Position numbers and translations under genes: made by a program. The notes beneath the pieces are model-generated. The model saw only the letters and a list, made by a program, of their open reading frames with translations. It was not told the origin of the DNA and made no database searches. 56,955 nt of DNA, taken from positions 1 to 56,955 of the IMG/VR virus record IMGVR_UViG_3300012948_000001. One strand, given 5' to 3'. Origin of the DNA: a virus. Lineage: Duplodnaviria; Caudoviricetes. Position 1 is the stretch's first letter. Every line of letters begins with the position of its first letter. Of the stretch, positions 8,434 to 55,480 are shown piece after piece.

Positions 8434-8502
8434 CCAACCAATCGAAACGAGGGGAGATAGCAATATCTCCCCTCACACTACTAACACAGGAGAGATAAAG
8501 AA

Positions 8503-8736
8503 ATGGCATCTACCGTTGAGACTTATGAGTTTCCCGCAAGTACGCGAGGGAAGCATGATTGGAATGCATGGCTTGATGGTCAGATTTGGGTACTGACGGA
8601 AGGTGTAGACTTTGATTCAAAGGCTACCTCGTTTCGTACTTCGGCCATGAAGCAAGCTGGTAATCGTAACAAGCAGCTTCGTTTCAATGTCGATGGTAAC
8701 AAGGTGTATCTCCAGGCCATCGAGAAGTCCGCTTAG
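8503..8736 (+). CDS. Small putative DNA-binding protein
   Basis: HDWNAWLDGQIWVLTEGVDF motif; same acacaggagaga leader as the previous gene. Confidence 0.7.
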   Translation: MASTVETYEFPASTRGKHDWNAWLDGQIWVLTEGVDFDSKATSFRTSAMKQAGNRNKQLRFNVDGNKVYLQAIEKSA

Positions 8737-8757
8737 TCCTACTAAGGTCGGGGAGAG

Positions 8758-8793
8758 AATGAGAGGGTCGGAAACGGCCCTCTCATTTTATTT
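8758..8793 (+). terminator. Rho-independent terminator
   Basis: aatgagagggtcg-gaaa-cggccctctcatt followed by T-rich tail. Confidence 0.75.
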
Positions 8794-8825
8794 CAATAGC
8801 GTGCTTACTTTAAAAGTTCGCACCC

Positions 8826-8854
8826 TTGACAATCACTTCCGCATCTGCTACGCT
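8826..8854 (+). promoter_or_regulatory. Housekeeping-sigma promoter
   Basis: TTGACA-17-TACGCT with TG extension. Confidence 0.7.
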
Positions 8855-8859
8855 TCACG

Positions 8860-9110
8860 TTGCATCCCGTAGATGCGCTCGCGGAATCAGGGGAGATAGC
8901 ACGGGAATGTGCGCCTATGCTATCTCCCCCCGCTTATTCAGATACAAAAAATCCGACGGACGGAGTATTCTGAATGAGAGATAGTGTAATCGGTCGGTGT
9001 GTCCTCCTTACCGATGACCCTGTACTATCTCTCATGGAGGATAGTCCGTCTATCTTCCATAACAGAGGGAGGTGGTTAGTTACGCGCAAAGGCTAGCTAC
9101 CTCCCTCTTA
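8860..9110 (+). ncRNA. Structured leader or sRNA with three long hairpins
   Basis: Stems 8890-8929, 8959-9050 and 9064-9108; no credible ORF. Confidence 0.55.
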
Positions 9111-18186: not shown

Positions 18187-18388
18187 TCATCCTCAGCATT
18201 ACGGTGGAGATACTACCTACGAAACAATCAAAGTCATTCACGCCTGGAAACTAGGATTTAATCTTGGTAACTGCGTTAAATACATTTCCCGAGCCGGTAA
18301 GAAAACAGATCATGTCGAAGATTTGAAAAAAGCAGCGTTCTATCTAAACTATGAGATAGAACTATTAGAGGGTAAAAGAGAAATCTAA
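18170..18388 (+). CDS. DUF3310 protein
   Basis: INHPQHYG...GNCVKYISRAGKK...EDLKKA. Confidence 0.85.
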   Translation: MTERINHPQHYGGDTTYETIKVIHAWKLGFNLGNCVKYISRAGKKTDHVEDLKKAAFYLNYEIELLEGKREI

Positions 18389-20814
18389 TGACGACGTTTC
18401 TTGAGATAAAACGGAAACATCCGTTGGCTGAGTGCGAGGTATGTCCTCTCATCAATTCACCCTGCGCTCCTTCTATTGGCCCAGAGGATGCGAAGATAGC
18501 CGTAGTCAGTAGAAGTCCTGGGTTTTATGAAGCGCAGAAGGGACAGCCTTTTAGTGGGCCGTCTGGCAAAGTTCTCGATCATTTGCTCCAACAGAATGGA
18601 GTAAAACGTGAAGAAGCTTTCCTTACTAACGTTGTCCTTTGCACTACTACTGCTCCACCGAAAGCTGCGATACAAGCGTGCGCTCCGCGTCTCCGTAGCG
18701 AAATTTCACAAGCTGATGTTATTATCGCCGCAGGAAGCGAAGCAGCTAAAGAAGTCCTTGGGGTCAACAGCCTATCTGGAAATCGTGGATTTAGGCACAG
18801 ACGCACTACAGACAGTGGGAAGTGGCAAGACGTGGTTGCCACCAACAACCCAGCCATCGTCCTCAAAGACGACACCATCTTCCCAAATCTCGTTAGGGAT
18901 TTTAGACTAGCGATAAATCCATTGCCACCAGTAGAACTTCCGGAAGTGAGTTGGACTAATGCAACTATGGAAGCTAGGAGAATCGCACGAGATATCAGTC
19001 GAAGGCTATCTACCTCGCCTGGAACCATTGCAGTCGATATCGAAACGAAAGGACTTGCTCACACGGCAGTCATTGTTAGTCTTGGACTCTCTATTACGGG
19101 ACTTCGAGCGTTTGCTTTTGGAGCCGAATGTTTCAAAGACGACTCTTTCCTTGTCGATTTCATTAGACCGATCCTCACGCAAGCCGGTACTACTTATATC
19201 TGGCACAACGGAAAGTTCGACGTTAGAAACTTTAGATCAAAGCGAATTGCAGGCAGGGTAGACGAAGATACGTTGCTCCTATCCTATGCTTTGGATGAAA
19301 GATCGGATGAGGAGCAAGTACATTCTCTCGACTATCTGTGCATGAATGAATTGAATTGGCCGCACTATGAACCAAAGATAGTCAAGAACTGGAAAGCCGC
19401 TGTGGCTAGACTGGAGCGAAATGCCGAATTTGAAAGACTTGCCCAGTTGGAGGTACCGGATGAATTGTATGAATACAACGCCAACGACGCAGCCGGTACG
19501 GCTCTCCTATTCCCAATCCTCAAACAGCGTGCTATCGACGATGGTGTCTATGATTATTATAAGAACTACCTTCTTCCAGACAGTAACGCCCTTATTGACG
19601 TAGAACTGCGAGGAATGAATTATAACATTCACAAAGCCGCCGACATGAATGAGATGGAGGTACTGCCTAAACTAGATGAGCTAAGAGAGACATTGAGATT
19701 GATCGTAGGCGATGGTAGTTATAATCCCGCCTCTGCTAAACAGAATTCTATACTGGTATACGATAAGTGGAAGGTAATACACGACATTGATCGGGGAGAG
19801 GATAAGGAACGCTCTGTCGATAAGCCGGTTTACACGGAACTCAGGGCAGGTCGTTTCTACATGGGGGCGGGTCATCAAGGTGACGCCGAAACAGTCAGAA
19901 GATGGGCCGGATACTTCACAGAATTCAAAGAGCTAGACAAACAGAGAGGTACATACGTTGAGGGACTCATCAAAAGAGCTGAGTTTGCGGGAGGAAAAGT
20001 CTTTAGCGACTTCAAGCTACATTCTACCGTCACGGGTAGGTCAAGCTCTAGTCGGCCTAATCTTCAAAACGTTACAAGGACGAAGGAGAATCTCCCGAAT
20101 ATTCGATCCCTTTTCGTTCCCTCTGAAGGATGTTGCATACTGTCAGCTGACTATTCGCAAGCAGAGTTACGGGCAATCGCCACCCTATCAGGTGATACTC
20201 GTCTGCAAGACATATACAGAGATAAGCGGAGTCTCCATCGAGAAGTAGCAGAACGTTTCTACGGAAAAGACTACAACTATGAGCAGTACGTCCATGCCAA
20301 GAATATGGATTTCGGAGTGGCGTATGGACAATCGGCGGAAACGTTCCAAGAGAAACATGATATTCCGGTTGCGGAAGGCAAGGACTTCATCAAATGGTGG
20401 TTCTCCAACTTCCCAGGAGTTGCCCGTTGGAGAAAAGAAGTCGCCCGAACCGTCAAGCGAGACGGATATATTCAAACTCCATTTGGTCACAAGCGAAGAT
20501 TTTATCTCATTACCTTTGAAAACAAGGGTGCGGTATATCGAGAAGCCATTAATTGTATTCCTCAAAATATCGCTGCTCGTCTTACTCTATACAGCGTTCG
20601 CCGTTTGGTTGATCTTGGTCTTCCTGTTGTTAATACCGTTCACGATAGCATCGTGCTTGATTGCCCTATTCATAGGGTGGGAGAATTTGTTGAAGCTATT
20701 AAGGGGGTGATGGAATCGGCACCTAAAGTTATTGGATGGATAGACATACCCTTTGAAGTTGAGTTCAGTGTTGGTGAAAACTGGGGTGAACTAAAGGAGA
20801 TAGAGAGTGTCTGA
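18388..20814 (+). CDS. polA: Family A DNA polymerase with N-terminal UDG-like Fe-S domain (SPO1-like) and 3'-5' exonuclease
   Basis: CEVC..TNVVLC..C; DIET, HNGKFD, YNANDA; TGR, ADYSQAELR, KNMDFGVAYG, VHDS. Confidence 0.92.
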   Translation: MTTFLEIKRKHPLAECEVCPLINSPCAPSIGPEDAKIAVVSRSPGFYEAQKGQPFSGPSGKVLDHLLQQNGVKREEAFLTNVVLCTTTAPPKAAIQACAPRLRSEISQADVIIAAGSEAAKEVLGVNSLSGNRGFRHRRTTDSGKWQDVVATNNPAIVLKDDTIFPNLVRDFRLAINPLPPVELPEVSWTNATMEARRIARDISRRLSTSPGTIAVDIETKGLAHTAVIVSLGLSITGLRAFAFGAECFKDDSFLVDFIRPILTQAGTTYIWHNGKFDVRNFRSKRIAGRVDEDTLLLSYALDERSDEEQVHSLDYLCMNELNWPHYEPKIVKNWKAAVARLERNAEFERLAQLEVPDELYEYNANDAAGTALLFPILKQRAIDDGVYDYYKNYLLPDSNALIDVELRGMNYNIHKAADMNEMEVLPKLDELRETLRLIVGDGSYNPASAKQNSILVYDKWKVIHDIDRGEDKERSVDKPVYTELRAGRFYMGAGHQGDAETVRRWAGYFTEFKELDKQRGTYVEGLIKRAEFAGGKVFSDFKLHSTVTGRSSSSRPNLQNVTRTKENLPNIRSLFVPSEGCCILSADYSQAELRAIATLSGDTRLQDIYRDKRSLHREVAERFYGKDYNYEQYVHAKNMDFGVAYGQSAETFQEKHDIPVAEGKDFIKWWFSNFPGVARWRKEVARTVKRDGYIQTPFGHKRRFYLITFENKGAVYREAINCIPQNIAARLTLYSVRRLVDLGLPVVNTVHDSIVLDCPIHRVGEFVEAIKGVMESAPKVIGWIDIPFEVEFSVGENWGELKEIESV

Positions 20815-23196: not shown

Positions 23197-23653
23197 TATC
23201 GACCCAGGGGGCACAACCGGCTACGCTATCGGAGAAGACTTCCCTGAAATCTTTAGAGTACAGATAGCGTATGGTCAGAAGAAAATGAATTCTGATGAGT
23301 TATATGAATTTATTGAGGATCTCAACCCTTCGCATCTGATATGTGAGAACTTCACTTATCGCAATAAACCGAGGACAGGACTTGATCTAACGGCCCCTAA
23401 ACTGATCGGTGTAGTAGAACTTTACGCTACACGTCAGACGGGAGTTACATTATATATGCAGCCGCCTGGACTCGGTTGGGACTACTTCACCGATAAGCGT
23501 ATAAAGGATATGCGCCTTTATCAAAAAGGCTTACAGCATGGTAGAGATGCTCTACGACACATGCTGTATTGGATAACCTTCGGAAAAGGATTCCCGCTCA
23601 TGGAGAGCATGGCGGGTTACAAATACGAGTTAGTCCCCGAAGAGTTCTTCTAA
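23183..23653 (+). CDS. RuvC-like Holliday junction resolvase
   Basis: IVSIDPGGTTG, ICENF, HGRDA. Confidence 0.75.
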   Translation: MKIVSIDPGGTTGYAIGEDFPEIFRVQIAYGQKKMNSDELYEFIEDLNPSHLICENFTYRNKPRTGLDLTAPKLIGVVELYATRQTGVTLYMQPPGLGWDYFTDKRIKDMRLYQKGLQHGRDALRHMLYWITFGKGFPLMESMAGYKYELVPEEFF

Positions 23654-23851
23654 CGATAAGTATTTTTCCTCGATAAGAATCGAAACTGCGTTAGCCATAT
23701 TCCTTGCATGAAGCTTTTTCAGCAGTTTCTTTTTATGGTGTTGCACAGTGTTAGGAGCTATCGCCATTATTTCGGCCGTTTCAGATGTAGTGTATCCTAA
23801 AGCAGCGTATTTAGCTACCTCAAGCTGCCTCTCTGATAGCAGGCTTTTCAT
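23630..23851 (-). CDS. Stand-alone LuxR/GerE-type HTH regulator
   Basis: LSERQLEV...G.T.SETAEIM.IAPNTVQHH...KL.ARN. Confidence 0.85.
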   Translation of the reverse strand: MKSLLSERQLEVAKYAALGYTTSETAEIMAIAPNTVQHHKKKLLKKLHARNMANAVSILIEEKYLSLEELFGD

Positions 23852-23931: not shown

Positions 23932-24453
23932 TCATGGACAATGTTTGTTATGTGGTGGACAAGGCTTTCCTGGTGGTTTACCTCCACCACCTCCATTACC
24001 ACCGCCATTAACAGTTACAGTTCTTGTAACAGTAACGGTAACTGTATCTACAACAGTACGTGTTATAACACGTCCCGCAGGCCCAGGTGGGCCAGGTGGG
24101 CCTTGAGGCCCGGTATGTCCTGGTGGCCCAGTTAATCCTCTTTCTCCTGCTGGCCCTCTAGTACCTGTATCACCCTTTGGGCCTTTTGCACCTTTAGCAC
24201 CGGCCGGGCCTTGACTAGCATTTATAATCTTTTGGATTTGGTGGATTTGTTTGATAATAGAACCTGTTGTACCTGCTGGGCCTGGTGGGCCTGCCGGGCC
24301 TTGAGGGCCAGGTTGACCTATAACACTTACGATACTGCTAATTGTAGTCTCTTCCTTCTTAACTTTCGCATTGAGTTGTTCGGCAGTAATCCACCCGAAC
24401 AAACCAGCTAGAGATAGAACTACAATTAGAGCTACAAAGCTAACGTATCTCAT
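23932..24453 (-). CDS. Membrane-anchored collagen-like protein of the lysis cassette
   Basis: N-terminal TM helix; two Gly-X-Y runs. Confidence 0.75.
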
Positions 24454-24640
24454 CTTTGTTACCACCACGAGGATGCTTCACGATTCCAAACCCAAAAACG
24501 TATCCTGCTAGAGCTAACATAACTGGAGTGGTGACTGTTAGAGCCGAATAGTCCTTTTGAAGATATCCTGCTACAACGGAAAATGTCCAGACTGCCACCA
24601 CACATACCTCAACAACAGTGATTAACCATTTTGGTGCCAT
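24440..24640 (-). CDS. Holin-like 2-TM protein, paralog B
   Basis: Two TM helices; basic C-terminus. Confidence 0.6.
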
Positions 24641-40125: not shown

Positions 40126-40482
40126 TTAGATTCGCTCTCCGCAATGAGGACAGTGGGTGATTCCTTGCGGATGCCTACCATACCAAAGTTCTAGGTTCTC
40201 AACTCGATTATCGTCTCTAATGCCGTTCTTATGATGAACAGTCTCTTTCTCCATTAAAGGACGACCAAGATGTTGCTCCATTACTAGTCGATGTTCTCTG
40301 ATAGTGAAAACCTGACCTTGCCACGTCGCATTCCAAAGAACATAACCATTGCCTATACATCTACTCCACTTAGGCGGTTGTCCTCTTTGAAGCATCCCCC
40401 TACCTGTGCGGGAACCAAGTTCTATAGATTCTAGCAATTCATCAACATTAGTGTCGATGAATGAGGTATCAGTTGTCTCCAT
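40126..40482 (-). CDS. HNH endonuclease
   Basis: EHRLVME.HLGR...VHHKNG.RDDNR.ENLEL. Confidence 0.85.
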
Positions 40483-52205: not shown

Positions 52206-52262
52206 ATGATACACATAGCCCAGATTGCTTACTAGAGAGGAAAAGTGGTATAGACCACTTTT
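52206..52262 (-). promoter_or_regulatory. Candidate late promoter with upstream palindromic operator
   Basis: TATCAT -10 at 52206-52211, weak -35; AAAAGTGGT-n4-ACCACTTTT at 52241-52262. Confidence 0.5.
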
Positions 52263-52418
52263 ATTCGGAATGCTCCAGCTACATTAACCAACAGTCGAAT
52301 CTTGGGGGTTGAATTACGCATAGAATGCTTTAGAGTACGAGTTAGGTCAGTTAGGTCGGCTGGGCGTCCGGTAGGAGTCGGCGCAGCTAGGAGCCACTGA
52401 CAAAGCTAGACACAACCT

Positions 52419-52901
52419 AATTTGGGCTAGTTGAACGAGCGTGTGCGCCCATGCATGACACCGAAAGGACTGTTATGCCTGAAAACACACAGTCGTTTGA
52501 AGACGTGCTCGTCTCACTCGGCATGTCGTCCAAGGAATCCGACCCGCGCATGAAAGACCTGGGTAAGCGCATCATGACCCAGCTTCGCGGAGAGGTGGAT
52601 CGCGTAGTGGTTGCTTGCTACGCGGCGGATCGACTCGACGAGAACATGACTGCACTCGCCCTCGCTGGTGATACCGATGGTACGCTAGTGTTCGCCGACG
52701 TCATCGACGTGCCCGACGCTACCATCAGTCGCATCAGGAGCGCCTGCTACAGCAACGCTGTGCAGAACAAGCGAATCAAGAACGTCTCGTTCATCCGCGT
52801 CAACGACCACAATGGCAATGCGTTCGCCCTCGTGGTCAAGAGGCTCAACACCAGCAACTAACCTCGCATCGGCGCATACGTTCGTTCAACTAGCTCAGAT
52901 T
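52419..52901 (+). repeat. 31-bp inverted repeat flanking a whole ORF
   Basis: 52419-52449 vs 52871-52901; all four deviations are G-U pairs on the + strand. Confidence 0.85.
52475..52861 (+). CDS. First early gene, hypothetical
   Basis: AAAGGA SD; strongly C/G-ending codons. Confidence 0.75.
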   Translation: MPENTQSFEDVLVSLGMSSKESDPRMKDLGKRIMTQLRGEVDRVVVACYAADRLDENMTALALAGDTDGTLVFADVIDVPDATISRIRSACYSNAVQNKRIKNVSFIRVNDHNGNAFALVVKRLNTSN

Positions 52902-52921
52902 GCTAACCGAAAGGATTGGCT

Positions 52922-53185
52922 ATGTCCAAATCCGAAGCGGCTAGATTGGTCGATGCCTATCTGGCTGAACAGGAGAACGACGAGCTAACCGAACGGGAGC
53001 GATTGCGTCAGTGTGGTGTAGTTGACGTATCGCATCGTACCGGCAAGCGTCGTCGTGGCAATAGCGTCCTGAAGCGTCAGCCTAAGACGTATTCAGCGGC
53101 CAGCACATACATCATCCGTTGTCCGAAGACGGGTGAACAGATCGCAACAACCAAGGTGCTCATCAAAAAGAGAATCCCTGTATAG
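52922..53185 (+). CDS. Hypothetical basic protein
   Basis: AAAGGA SD; followed by terminator. Confidence 0.65.
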   Translation: MSKSEAARLVDAYLAEQENDELTERERLRQCGVVDVSHRTGKRRRGNSVLKRQPKTYSAASTYIIRCPKTGEQIATTKVLIKKRIPV

Positions 53186-53198
53186 GGATTCTCTTTTT
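53165..53198 (+). terminator. Rho-independent terminator (possibly bidirectional)
   Basis: aaaaagagaatccct-gtat-agggattctcttttt. Confidence 0.75.
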
Positions 53199-53259
53199 GT
53201 GCAGCATAAGGGAACAATTCGCGCTTCGCGATTTTCCTTCCGAAAGGAGGTGAAAACCC

Positions 53260-53426: not shown

Positions 53427-53611
53427 AGGTAATAAATCTAATTAATTACCTGGGAACTAATCGTGCAACGTCGTGTCAACAGGGTATATGGATCGCTTAT
53501 ACGAGGTATAAGCGTTTCATTTCACCAATTTCACCTATTACACACCGTCAGAAAGTTACAGTTATCCCTCGAAACAAATAAACCAGGTACTAAATCTAAT
53601 CATTTACCTGG
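53427..53611. repeat. Two 27-bp palindromic direct repeats in an AT-rich noncoding region
   Basis: aggtaataaatctaattaattacctgg (53427) and aggtactaaatctaatcatttacctgg (53585). Confidence 0.7.
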
Positions 53612-53767
53612 TAATTAATGTACGTAGTAGTGTAGTATGGTGAATTTGACAATCCGGGGAAGTGATAAACATAATTAAACACTGGCCGTGTCTCAACGAG
53701 GGATTTGCGCTACTTGTCCCTCAGACTTTTGACAGATCGAGGCTTTTTACGCGGAGCTGTCAAACCC

Positions 53768-54003: not shown

Positions 54004-54192
54004 ATGGATGCAGCAACCATTACCTCGCTAGTCATCGTGATCGGATCTATTGTGATCGGTTTTGCACAATGGATCGCTGCGGTTTACGTTGCAGCAGAGA
54101 TCGGATACTCGAAAGGTCGTAGTGGACTCTTTTGGGGTCTGATCTTCGGATGGCTCGGCGTGTTGGCAGTATACGTGCTGCCTGAAAAGTAA
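54004..54192 (+). CDS. Small membrane protein
   Basis: GGAGGTGA SD; KGRSG..WG..FG.LG motif. Confidence 0.7.
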   Translation: MDAATITSLVIVIGSIVIGFAQWIAAVYVAAEIGYSKGRSGLFWGLIFGWLGVLAVYVLPEK

Positions 54193-54369
54193 TACTAACC
54201 CGAAAGGGTTAGTAAACCGGAAGTCAGTAAAAAGCAGCGTAGAGATAACATCGTGAGAAAAACTGTGTCGCGTTATGGCTAACCGCGAGATGGTAGAGGA
54301 CATAAAAGCCATCGTCCGGAACTGCGATGCTCTGACGGCTATAAGACGCTCCGGTTTATTAACCCTTTT
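54193..54369 (+). ncRNA. Candidate structured RNA A
   Basis: 19-bp closing stem 54203-54221/54350-54368 around a multibranch core. Confidence 0.6.
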
Positions 54370-54387
54370 AGGTCATTTAATTCGGCC

Positions 54388-54416
54388 TTGCAATCAGGGA
54401 CGGTTTGGTGTATAAT
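54388..54416 (+). promoter_or_regulatory. Strong early promoter
   Basis: TTGCAA-17-TATAAT. Confidence 0.7.
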
Positions 54417-54453
54417 CCGTTCCGCGGATCTACGGAAAGGGGATATCGCACTT

Positions 54454-54579
54454 ATGGCACCTATTGGTGATCCTGAGAAGGTTTGGGAATTGCCTGCACC
54501 GTTGGATGTACCTAGTCCAGACGACGTGCCGGTTGAATTGCCCATTCCTGTTGAAACTCCAGAAAAGGTGGAGGTTTAG
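54454..54579 (+). CDS. Pro/Glu-rich peptide, 41 aa
   Basis: AAAGGGGA SD; MAPIGDPEKVWELPAP... Confidence 0.65.
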   Translation: MAPIGDPEKVWELPAPLDVPSPDDVPVELPIPVETPEKVEV

Positions 54580-54762
54580 TAAGGCGCACTCAGGAAGATA
54601 TTTATTATGGAAACCCCTTATTCCTGAGGGCTTTGTCCAGGCTCTCGAATAGGAATAAGAGAGGGTTAGAGTTAGGACAACTCTAACGAACCATAAATGT
54701 CTTGATATCCTGTCCAGTAGTGGTAGCTGCTGAGATAAGGGAGTGCGTCTTACTAAATCTCT
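54570..54762 (+). ncRNA. Candidate structured RNA B
   Basis: 22-bp closing stem 54570-54591/54741-54762; nested hairpins with complementary loops. Confidence 0.65.
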
Positions 54763-54781
54763 ACCCGGAAAGGAGGTGATT

Positions 54782-55198
54782 ATGCTTCCAGAGTATGTTG
54801 GTAGCCAGCATGTTCGAGCGATCCGAATTTTTGGGGTCAATCGAAAGACACTTATGCTTGAATCTCTGAATGGTGAAGTTTGGGTGCCAGGTGAGATCAA
54901 GCAAAGTGTTTGTGGACATGCAAAGCACCATGGCTTTACGAAGCCAGAAGTAAAGTGCTCCTGTGGGATTTGGAGTTGCAAGTCCCGCAAGGCATTGAAG
55001 CGAACTTTTCCTCATTTGTATTACGGGGAAAGGATCGTGAGCGCACAAGTGGAGCAATGGGGTAGGGTAATCGAGCACAGAGACGGTTATCGTAGCGAGT
55101 ATGCCAGAATAGTGCCAGGCACTATCCAGTTCTGGCCTCGACCCCACAAACCGAGTAACAAAAAGCTCATCAACTTTCTACGCGCAAAGTATTCTTAG
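54782..55198 (+). CDS. CxCG-motif protein of unknown function
   Basis: AGGAGGTGA SD; CSCGIWS...WGRVIEH..GYRS. Confidence 0.75.
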   Translation: MLPEYVGSQHVRAIRIFGVNRKTLMLESLNGEVWVPGEIKQSVCGHAKHHGFTKPEVKCSCGIWSCKSRKALKRTFPHLYYGERIVSAQVEQWGRVIEHRDGYRSEYARIVPGTIQFWPRPHKPSNKKLINFLRAKYS

Positions 55199-55212: not shown

Positions 55213-55380
55213 ATGATCTTTGACAGCAAAGATCGTGAGGATATGAAAGTTGCGGTTTGGGCTATCGGAATCGCGGCCGATCATATCAAGTGCAGCATTT
55301 GCGGTCGTTATTGGGATACAATTGATCCCTGCTGTCTCTGCAACGTAACGTTGTGGGTTACGGGCAGAAAGAATAGCTAA
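55213..55380 (+). CDS. Small Zn-ribbon protein, 55 aa (not in ORF track)
   Basis: AGGAGGTGA SD; CSIC...CCLC. Confidence 0.65.
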   Translation: MIFDSKDREDMKVAVWAIGIAADHIKCSICGRYWDTIDPCCLCNVTLWVTGRKNS

Positions 55381-55386
55381 CCCGAT

Positions 55387-55457
55387 AAGGGTTAGTAAGC
55401 TAGTGAGAGGAACCAGGCGATTATTGCGAGCCAACTTTCACTAGCTCACTAACTCTT
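55387..55457 (+). promoter_or_regulatory. Intergenic long RNA stem, candidate RNase III-type site
   Basis: 23-bp stem with two G-U pairs and one mismatch. Confidence 0.6.
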
Positions 55458-55480
55458 AAGGAAAGGAGGTGAAAGACCTA

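Follow-up and report, generated by a model that had tools for sequence, protein, structure and literature searches.

Why should a small phage gene, together with its ribosome-binding site, be enclosed by the two arms of a long inverted repeat, and do those arms matter as RNA or as DNA? The question arises in a 56,955-bp phage record that represents a complete genome (terminal overlap of 123 bp); this whole stretch of DNA is what we call the window. An earlier note on the locus had likened the repeat to an rRNA processing stem clamped around the first early ORF of the phage, and its claims were followed up here by computational analysis.

The phage is an uncultured soil phage. A sequencing-run search found the sequence in a single run, a soil metagenome (DNA) that is probably the source sample, and listed no RNA sequencing runs containing the locus. 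The structural genes (capsid, portal, terminase, tape measure, tail tube, and tail fibers) are on the - strand at ~23.6-52.2 kb, and no sheath gene was identified among the tailed-phage structural genes. The + strand carries replication genes and small orphan genes from 52.4 kb across the record end to 23.7 kb. There is no close cultured relative; the best matches of the DNA polymerase are to Weizmannia, Bacillus, and Brevundimonas phages at <30% identity, and blastn of the window against 50,697 phage records gave no match. The genome has a GC content of 0.469 and contains very long Shine-Dalgarno (SD) sites (GAAAGGAGGTGA, repeat family D4/D15) and TTGACA/TATAAT promoters, from which features alone we derive the suggestion that the host belongs to the Bacillota. 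No tRNAs were found in the window, and a tRNA-like reading of TAGCTCAG was rejected given that ARAGORN was negative. Rfam (rRNA included) had zero matches in the window at the gathering threshold, and relaxing the cutoff to E <= 1 yielded no meaningful ones.

A 31-bp helix around a single cistron

A repeat search returned two arms of 36 nt that are 86% complementary at the DNA level and 411 nt apart (Table 1). Read position by position, 31/36 arm positions form Watson-Crick pairs, and four of the remaining five are G-U pairs in + strand RNA (52422 T·G, 52425 G·T, 52439 G·T, and 52443 G·T). The fifth mismatch is a C·C (52450/52870), after which four more pairs follow. The earlier note had described a 31-bp stem whose four non-Watson-Crick positions are all G-U, and this description proved exact: the contiguous core (52419-52449 / 52871-52901) has 27 Watson-Crick and 4 G-U pairs, and the 36-nt repeat is this core plus the C·C mismatch and the four additional pairs. 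The SD-like element and the whole 128-aa ORF, from its ATG at 52475 through its stop codon, lie inside the loop, as had also been stated. The arms are noncoding and fit the cistron tightly, with the helix ending ~8-9 nt before the SD and resuming ~4-5 nt after the stop codon. The start codon is 20 nt from the inner helix end, and the helix leaves the SD uncovered. The flanking sequences of the gene provide uninterrupted double-stranded RNA (dsRNA) of about two helical turns or more.

Table 1. Features of the inverted repeat and of the neighboring rightward region, in positions of the window
Feature	Position	Strand	Remarks
Left (5') arm of repeat A	52419..52454	+	Contains the core GGGCTAGT and the stop codons TAG and TGA
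Right (3') arm of repeat A	52866..52901	+	Begins 5 nt past the stop codon of the 128-aa ORF
SD-like GAAAGGA	52463..52469	+	Within the loop, 5 nt upstream of the ATG; from sequence reading
128-aa orphan ORF (P0001)	52475..52861	+	Within the loop; stop codon 52859-52861
Partial third copy of the outer end of the right arm plus flank	52216..52232	+	TAGCCCAGATTGCTTAC versus TAGCTCAGATTGCTAAC, 15/17; able to pair with 52419-52429
Small GAAA-loop hairpin / SD of the next ORF	52902..52920	+	Directly 3' of the right arm; resembles the CTAACCC-GAAA-GGGTTAG hairpins at 54193 and 55376
P0002, second ORF of the GC-rich block	52922..53185	+	87 aa, orphan, basic; GC3 0.567 on the TTG-start frame 52916-53185
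Promoter-like match, the only one upstream of the 128-aa ORF	52309..52336	+	TTGAAT-16-TAGAGT, 8/12; weak
16-bp hairpin	53164..53199 (to ~53204 including the T-run)	+	A-run before, T-run after; closes the GC-rich block
Sibling stem B	54202-54221 / 54350-54369	+	20 bp including 2 G-U, 128-nt loop; after the membrane-protein gene, before the promoter at 54388
Sibling stem C	54567-54591 / 54741-54765	+	25 bp including 3 G-U, 149-nt loop of structured noncoding RNA; directly before the SD of gene 54782-55198
Sibling stem D	55386-55409 / 55435-55458	+	21 Watson-Crick pairs of 24; 2 G·T, 1 A·C

Of 75 inverted pairs genome-wide, this repeat ranks first in both length and quality; the next-best pairs are 34 nt (71-74%) and have arms 11-14 kb apart. 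When an 18-mer of the left arm was searched with <=3 mismatches, the only sites were the two arms (expected, 0.02; two matches in 0/100 shuffles). The longest contiguous G-U-tolerant helix formed within 1.5 kb is 32 bp at this locus, compared to maxima of 16-21 in 30/30 shuffles. The stem is present in both the minimum free energy (MFE) and centroid folds (z = -5.88, with equally stable shuffles in 0/100), and the mean pair probability of its 31 pairs was 0.96-0.996 in five transcript contexts. These results confirmed that the inverted repeat is real and nonrandom, far beyond what chance would produce.

Sibling stems and the G-U bias of the arms

Three additional stems that share a core with this repeat (repeat A) lie in the same region (stems B, C, and D in Table 1) and are a new finding of this analysis. 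Stems B and C came from a helix scan, and stem D was found by inspection. Stem C is longer than every shuffle maximum, stem B alone is at chance level, and both appear in the MFE and centroid structures predicted for 54185-54800 (z = -7.94, 0/20 shuffles). All three are intercistronic, in the order stop codon, stem, and next SD or promoter. The arms of A to D all contain the core GGGYTAGT, to which each arm pair adds 8-18 nt of private sequence. Because the four repeat units have unrelated interiors, we rejected a MITE family. The membership of stem A in the family of B, C, and D depends on the 8-nt core, a link that was drawn post hoc. Tight hairpins of the form CTAACCC-GAAA-GGGTTAG are found at 54193-54214 and 55376-55396, and many other + strand gene junctions carry UUCG or GAAA tetraloop hairpins, which are RNA-level motifs.

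We considered that the core could instead be a protein-binding DNA site, with GGGYTAGT as the half-site of a phage or host regulator and its distant inverted copies serving looping or repression of the cassette. The core is present at 11-12 aligned sites in 52.2-56.1 kb, some of them tight palindromes, and the basic orphan protein P0002 is encoded next door, both of which would fit a regulator. However, a common binding protein does not explain the private extension of each arm pair, the spacings vary from 4 to 411 nt, and the GAAA/UUCG loops and the G-U bias described below are features of RNA. The core with 1 mismatch is also not enriched genome-wide (12 versus 12.5 in shuffles), and only its clustering is notable. 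We therefore regard binding sites as an improbable explanation of the repeat.

The mismatches within the arms bear on the strand that pairs. The four repeats hold 12 mismatches, and 10 of these are G-U on the + strand, the other two being one A·C and one transversion; the boundaries of A to C followed a Watson-Crick-only extension rule, and the span of D was set by hand from the pairing table. If the neutral share of G-U is at most 0.33-0.44, the probability of 10 or more G-U of 12 is about 0.0005-0.007 by hand calculation. For repeat A alone, in which 4/5 mismatches are G-U, the signal is marginal (p about 0.04-0.1, a hand estimate). Of the 10 G-U pairs, nine place the G on the left and the T on the right. 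The same G-U pattern would arise from a C-to-T mutational bias on the + strand, and under a 2:1 C-to-T bias the observed 10/11 transitions have a p value of about 0.075 (hand calculation). The duplex energies of the + and - strand RNAs, in kcal/mol, are -59.5/-46.7 for A, -42.2/-29.3 for C, -29.8/-25.3 for B, and -22.9/-22.3 for D.

A quite different possibility is an invertible DNA switch, in which inversion of the 483-bp segment by a site-specific recombinase would control whether the gene is on or off. Segments of ~483 bp with ~36-bp arms are typical of invertons, and the SD and ORF would flip as a unit. We regard this as very improbable. No serine or tyrosine recombinase, integrase, or transposase was detected among the 105 ORFs of the phage at E <= 1e-4, although a host enzyme is possible; the arms are only 86% identical; and a G-U bias is not expected at recombination sites. 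One contig (depth, 26.7) also crosses the locus uninterrupted, and neither joints nor alternative-junction contigs accompany it, which is weak evidence given that the contigs come from one run and drop rare variants. The lack of a recombinase or transposase, the single contig, the absence of a 22-nt arm pattern from the genome collections searched, and the lack of a target-site duplication weaken the transposon and inverton readings alike.

Several further structures were noted in this region and in one other part of the genome. The 199-nt noncoding unit at 54567-54765, which follows a 41-aa ORF and has a 25-bp closing stem with several internal hairpins, had no match in Rfam and may be a structured phage RNA. 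At 54193-54369, a 9-bp GAAA-tetraloop hairpin directly follows the membrane-protein gene, and its 3' half can instead pair with a distal copy 150 nt downstream (20 bp); this looks like an alternative pairing, and the promoter at 54388 (TTGCAA-17-TATAAT) follows shortly after its end. The strong promoters at 53646 and 53768 are closely preceded by a pair of AT-rich direct repeats of 35 nt (53427-53461 and 53585-53619; 86%), each of which forms a hairpin (AGGTAAT...ATTACCT); they are possibly an operator or origin-like region. Far from this region, before the helicase region, a cluster of strong hairpins and repeats at 8445-9110 contains elements at 8449-8474 and 8756-8789, the latter a GAAA hairpin of 15 bp that has a T-run. 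It also includes an inverted repeat of 27 nt (8959-8985/9024-9050) and, at 9064-9108, a hairpin of 18 bp.

Composition and relatives of the enclosed gene

The earlier note had remarked that the enclosed ORF has more C/G-ending codons than the rest of the genome, and this was borne out. P0001 has a GC3 of 0.737 when scored on 52451-52861, a 136-aa frame that includes the 128-aa ORF, and none of the 105 ORFs has a higher value; the next is 0.638, and the others range from 0.25 to 0.64, mostly 0.35-0.55. The conclusion drawn there, that this codon usage marks a highly expressed gene, found no support. The major capsid gene, which is surely highly expressed, has a GC3 of only 0.488, and the GC-rich zone spans a whole block at ~52.3-53.1 kb that includes P0002 as well as P0001 (GC of 0.53-0.60 at 52.4-53.0 kb versus 0.41-0.49 on either side). 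Given the ordinary capsid value and the extent of the block, the codon bias of P0001 looks like a sign of foreign origin, which is a simpler reading than high expression.

This two-gene block, which ends in a terminator-like hairpin, looks like a moron in the sense of the published definition (PMC3594210). At 52.3-53.2 kb, it deviates from the surrounding genome in GC and GC3, as a moron does, and the hairpin with its T-run reads as a bidirectional intrinsic terminator, an assignment that is our own and that the consensus terminator scan does not include. As for a promoter of its own, the block offers only the 8/12 match. The only strong sigma-70-like + strand promoters near the locus (53646, 53768, and 54388) are downstream of the ORF, so that the label of first early ORF lacks support. 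A promoter that would place the transcript start at the left arm was looked for and rejected, as none was found. The two arms may be transcribed together; they are on the same strand, and the scan found no terminator-like site on the + strand between them. Two other features of the block were noted. Upstream of the left arm, a GC-rich leader carries a tandem 9-mer (AGTTAGGTC x2, 52340-52357) followed by two TAGGAG words. On the - strand inside P0002, a leftward-pointing promoter-like sequence (53034-53061, TTGCCA-16-TACGAT, 9/12) would, if active, produce RNA antisense to both cassette genes and toward the structural operon.

The description of P0001 as a host-takeover protein found no backing in any family, fold, or defense library. 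There was no Pfam match above cutoff and no PHROGs or PADLOC match, and neither a PDB profile search nor the ESM Atlas gave a usable match. The AlphaFold model, of mixed helix and strand, has a pLDDT of 55.3, which is too poor for a structure search. An exhaustive HMMER search with P0001 returned five hits at E <= 0.001, namely, P0001 itself, one distant homologue (P0003; 125 aa, 35% identity over the full length, E of 2.2e-11), and three proteins of 1,281-1,600 aa with WD40/LRR/STAND repeats that we treated as spurious short-repeat matches. The full-length match to P0003 supports the 128-aa frame and its start at 52475. A word-indexed search found only the query itself for both P0001 (1/48 candidates) and P0002 (1/14).

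No related genome retaining the stem locus was found among the relatives scanned. The only known sources of P0003 are a Logan contig of 1,490 bp and a single catalogue entry, and scans of viral, genome, and metagenome contigs for its locus found nothing. Two neighbor-gene scans had no matches, and a third gave two 23-residue matches (L004 and L005), of which L004, the one inspected, was unrelated. Relatives of the capsid (60-61% identity) are fragments without the locus, and two loci with a homologue of gene 54782-55198 (GC of 0.63 and 0.31) have no comparable stems or core motif.

The same results bear on the proposal that the stem gives rise to a covalently circularized, excised RNA encoding a highly expressed host-takeover protein, which we find scarcely credible. 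All that speaks for it is the closed-loop geometry, which places the inner helix end 4 nt from the stop codon and 20 nt from the start codon. No RNA ligase or RtcB-like gene was detected among the 105 ORFs, which leaves the claim of circularization unsupported; the ordinary GC3 of the capsid gene removes the codon bias as a signature of expression, no strong promoter lies upstream, and P0001 belongs to no recognizable family.

The main rival to a functional RNA stem is that the repeat is a DNA-level scar of cassette acquisition. It would have been left by recombination or template switching between intergenic hairpin modules, or by a selfish unit of the intervening sequence (IVS) or MITE type, and RNA pairing would be a tolerated by-product; we consider this unlikely, although it carries appreciable weight. 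The arms exactly bound the strongest compositional outlier in the genome. Two direct repeats have the appearance of recombination joints. One, of 17 nt (52216-52232 / 52891-52907, 15/17), takes in the right arm's outermost 11 nt together with 6 nt of adjoining flank; the other, of 13 nt (52460 and 52906, 12/13), spans the SD context. Together with the "minus, plus, ... minus" order of the core at A, B, and D, these two direct repeats suggest that the rightward region was assembled by exchanges among hairpin modules. Such traces are also compatible with an RNA stem that is native to the phage and has received a foreign gene in its apex.

Known mobile and modular elements resemble the locus in part. 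In T4-type phages, repeated promoter/stem-loop modules (PeSLs) are described as flanking orphan genes in plastic early regions and as driving modular shuffling (PMC2839356), and core-sharing hairpins likewise recur at gene boundaries in the rightward region of this phage. However, PeSLs are direct repeats with strong promoters, whereas the phage repeats are inverted and pair specific and have no convincing promoter. The IVS in the 23S rRNA of Coxiella burnetii is reported to be a 428-nt, ORF-bearing (S23p) element that is excised by RNase III and regarded as horizontally acquired and selfish (PMC4990558); the phage element is similar in having ~430-480 nt, a terminal stem, and one small ORF. 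Unlike the IVS, it lies outside rRNA (no rRNA is present in the window), and P0001 shows no S23p four-helix bundle (no Pfam match; an alpha/beta fold predicted at low confidence, pLDDT of 55). Correia/NEMIS and other bacterial MITEs are described as having transcribed terminal inverted repeats that are RNase III substrates and affect neighboring mRNAs (PMC2229807, PMC2649163). They share with the phage element terminal inverted repeats of ~24-36 bp that fold into a long RNA stem, but the phage element is single copy, contains a full gene, and belongs to no multicopy family.

Several observations run against a scar. No target-site duplication abuts the arms (the flanks are ...CAACCT before the left arm and GCTAACC... 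after the right arm), the arm is found at two sites only in the phage, and no cognate transposase accompanies it, so that it does not qualify as a MITE or a terminal-inverted-repeat transposon. A 22-nt arm pattern was absent (0 matches) from both IMG/VR and a set of genomes covering 185,579 species (one genome per species). The unrelated interiors of the four repeat units argue against a scar as well, and neutral drift does not predict that 10/12 mismatches should be G-U on the coding strand.

A proposed processing or stabilizing stem and its known counterparts

Our preferred explanation, which we advance tentatively and with slightly less than even confidence, is that the repeat forms a helix in the + strand mRNA that serves as an RNase III-type processing or stabilizing stem around a horizontally acquired gene. 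It is favored by a helix that exceeds chance and dominates the folds, by the + strand G-U asymmetry, by the sibling stems, by the tight fit of the noncoding arms to the cistron with no + strand terminator between them, by the tetraloop hairpins between genes, and by the lack of a recombinase, transposase, or integrase and of an inverted junction in the one assembly. It is weakened by the marginal G-U signal for A alone, the C-to-T alternative, the weak promoter, and the post hoc nature of the family link.

The arms would pair in the + strand mRNA to give a 31(+4)-bp helix that closes the SD and the whole 128-aa gene in the 411-nt loop, and ribosomes could translate the looped cistron without melting the helix. 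A host double-strand-specific RNase of the RNase III type would then cut both strands of the stem and uncouple P0001 from the downstream P0002, and the leftover paired ends may shield the RNA of the gene against 5' and 3' exonucleases. Alternatively, the uncut clamp alone might protect both ends, as in the hbs mRNA of Bacillus subtilis. The enclosed gene would be a horizontally acquired passenger, probably lodged in the apex of a phage-native stem, in which case the stem would have come first and the gene second.

Intercistronic RNase III sites formed by local hairpins are found in the early transcripts of T7. The transcripts of the B. subtilis phage SP82 are likewise described as RNase III targets (PMC4838370). 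The sites of both phages resemble the stem in lying between cistrons of a phage transcript and in that sibling sites share sequence, but they are local hairpins, whereas the stem has a 411-nt loop. In rRNA, flanking stems are reported to act as RNase III processing sites for 16S and 23S (PMC6582327), and these, like the phage stem, are long dsRNAs in which the two strands come from either side of the RNA that is to be freed. The phage stem differs in that it encloses a protein-coding cistron with an SD rather than an rRNA. The likeness to an rRNA processing stem thus stands in part: the gene is bracketed by a + strand duplex of the length of an RNase III substrate, and the mismatch pattern favors + strand RNA, while the processing itself is made plausible by the three further long intercistronic stems.

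Pairing across a single coding region is also described in cellular mRNAs. A 14-bp pairing between the untranslated regions (UTRs) at the 5' and 3' ends is reported to protect the B. subtilis hbs mRNA from RNase Y (PMC5737220), and a 5'/3'-UTR duplex of the Staphylococcus aureus icaR mRNA is reported to be cut by RNase III (PMC7821165). As at the phage locus, sequences upstream and downstream of one coding region pair, and in hbs and icaR this pairing controls the access of an RNase. Unlike these mRNAs, the phage helix is 31-35 bp long, leaves the SD uncovered, and is part of a two-gene unit in which the 3' arm is intercistronic rather than a true 3' UTR.

An extension of the preferred reading, which we consider rather doubtful, is that the rightward transcript is organized as "addressed" RNA modules. 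Coding and noncoding inserts would each be closed by a private long stem built on the common core, so that host RNase III could cut out each module, or leave it clamped, independently, and foreign genes could lodge in an apical loop without disturbing the operon. If true, such modules would be an mRNA counterpart of ORF-bearing rRNA intervening sequences. Ribosome reloading onto the same cistron could also be favored, as the helix would bring the stop codon, at 4 nt from it, close to the SD and the start codon, at 9-20 nt.

If the stem is a real processing or stabilizing clamp, phages would use gene-enclosing, long-range helices of the rRNA style to set the fate of a single cistron inside an operon, and such a clamp would offer a way to place orphan genes in phage transcripts while avoiding polar effects. 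Its signature, a private inverted repeat with an SD and an ORF exactly between the arms, would also be easy to search for and would give access to how phage "dark matter" genes are expressed. Should the repeat be only a recombination scar, it would still mark the exact boundaries of a recent gene acquisition.

Elsewhere in the genome, a single 808-aa ORF at 18388-20814 encodes DNA polymerase A with an N-terminal domain of the uracil-DNA-glycosylase (UDG) superfamily, so that UDG, 3'-5' exonuclease, and PolA are joined in one protein. An HNH endonuclease gene (40129-40482) immediately adjoins the large terminase gene. At the junction of the two gene blocks, a 73-aa GerE/LuxR-type HTH protein (23633-23851), which adjoins a collagen-repeat protein (23935-24468), is possibly a regulator of the late genes.
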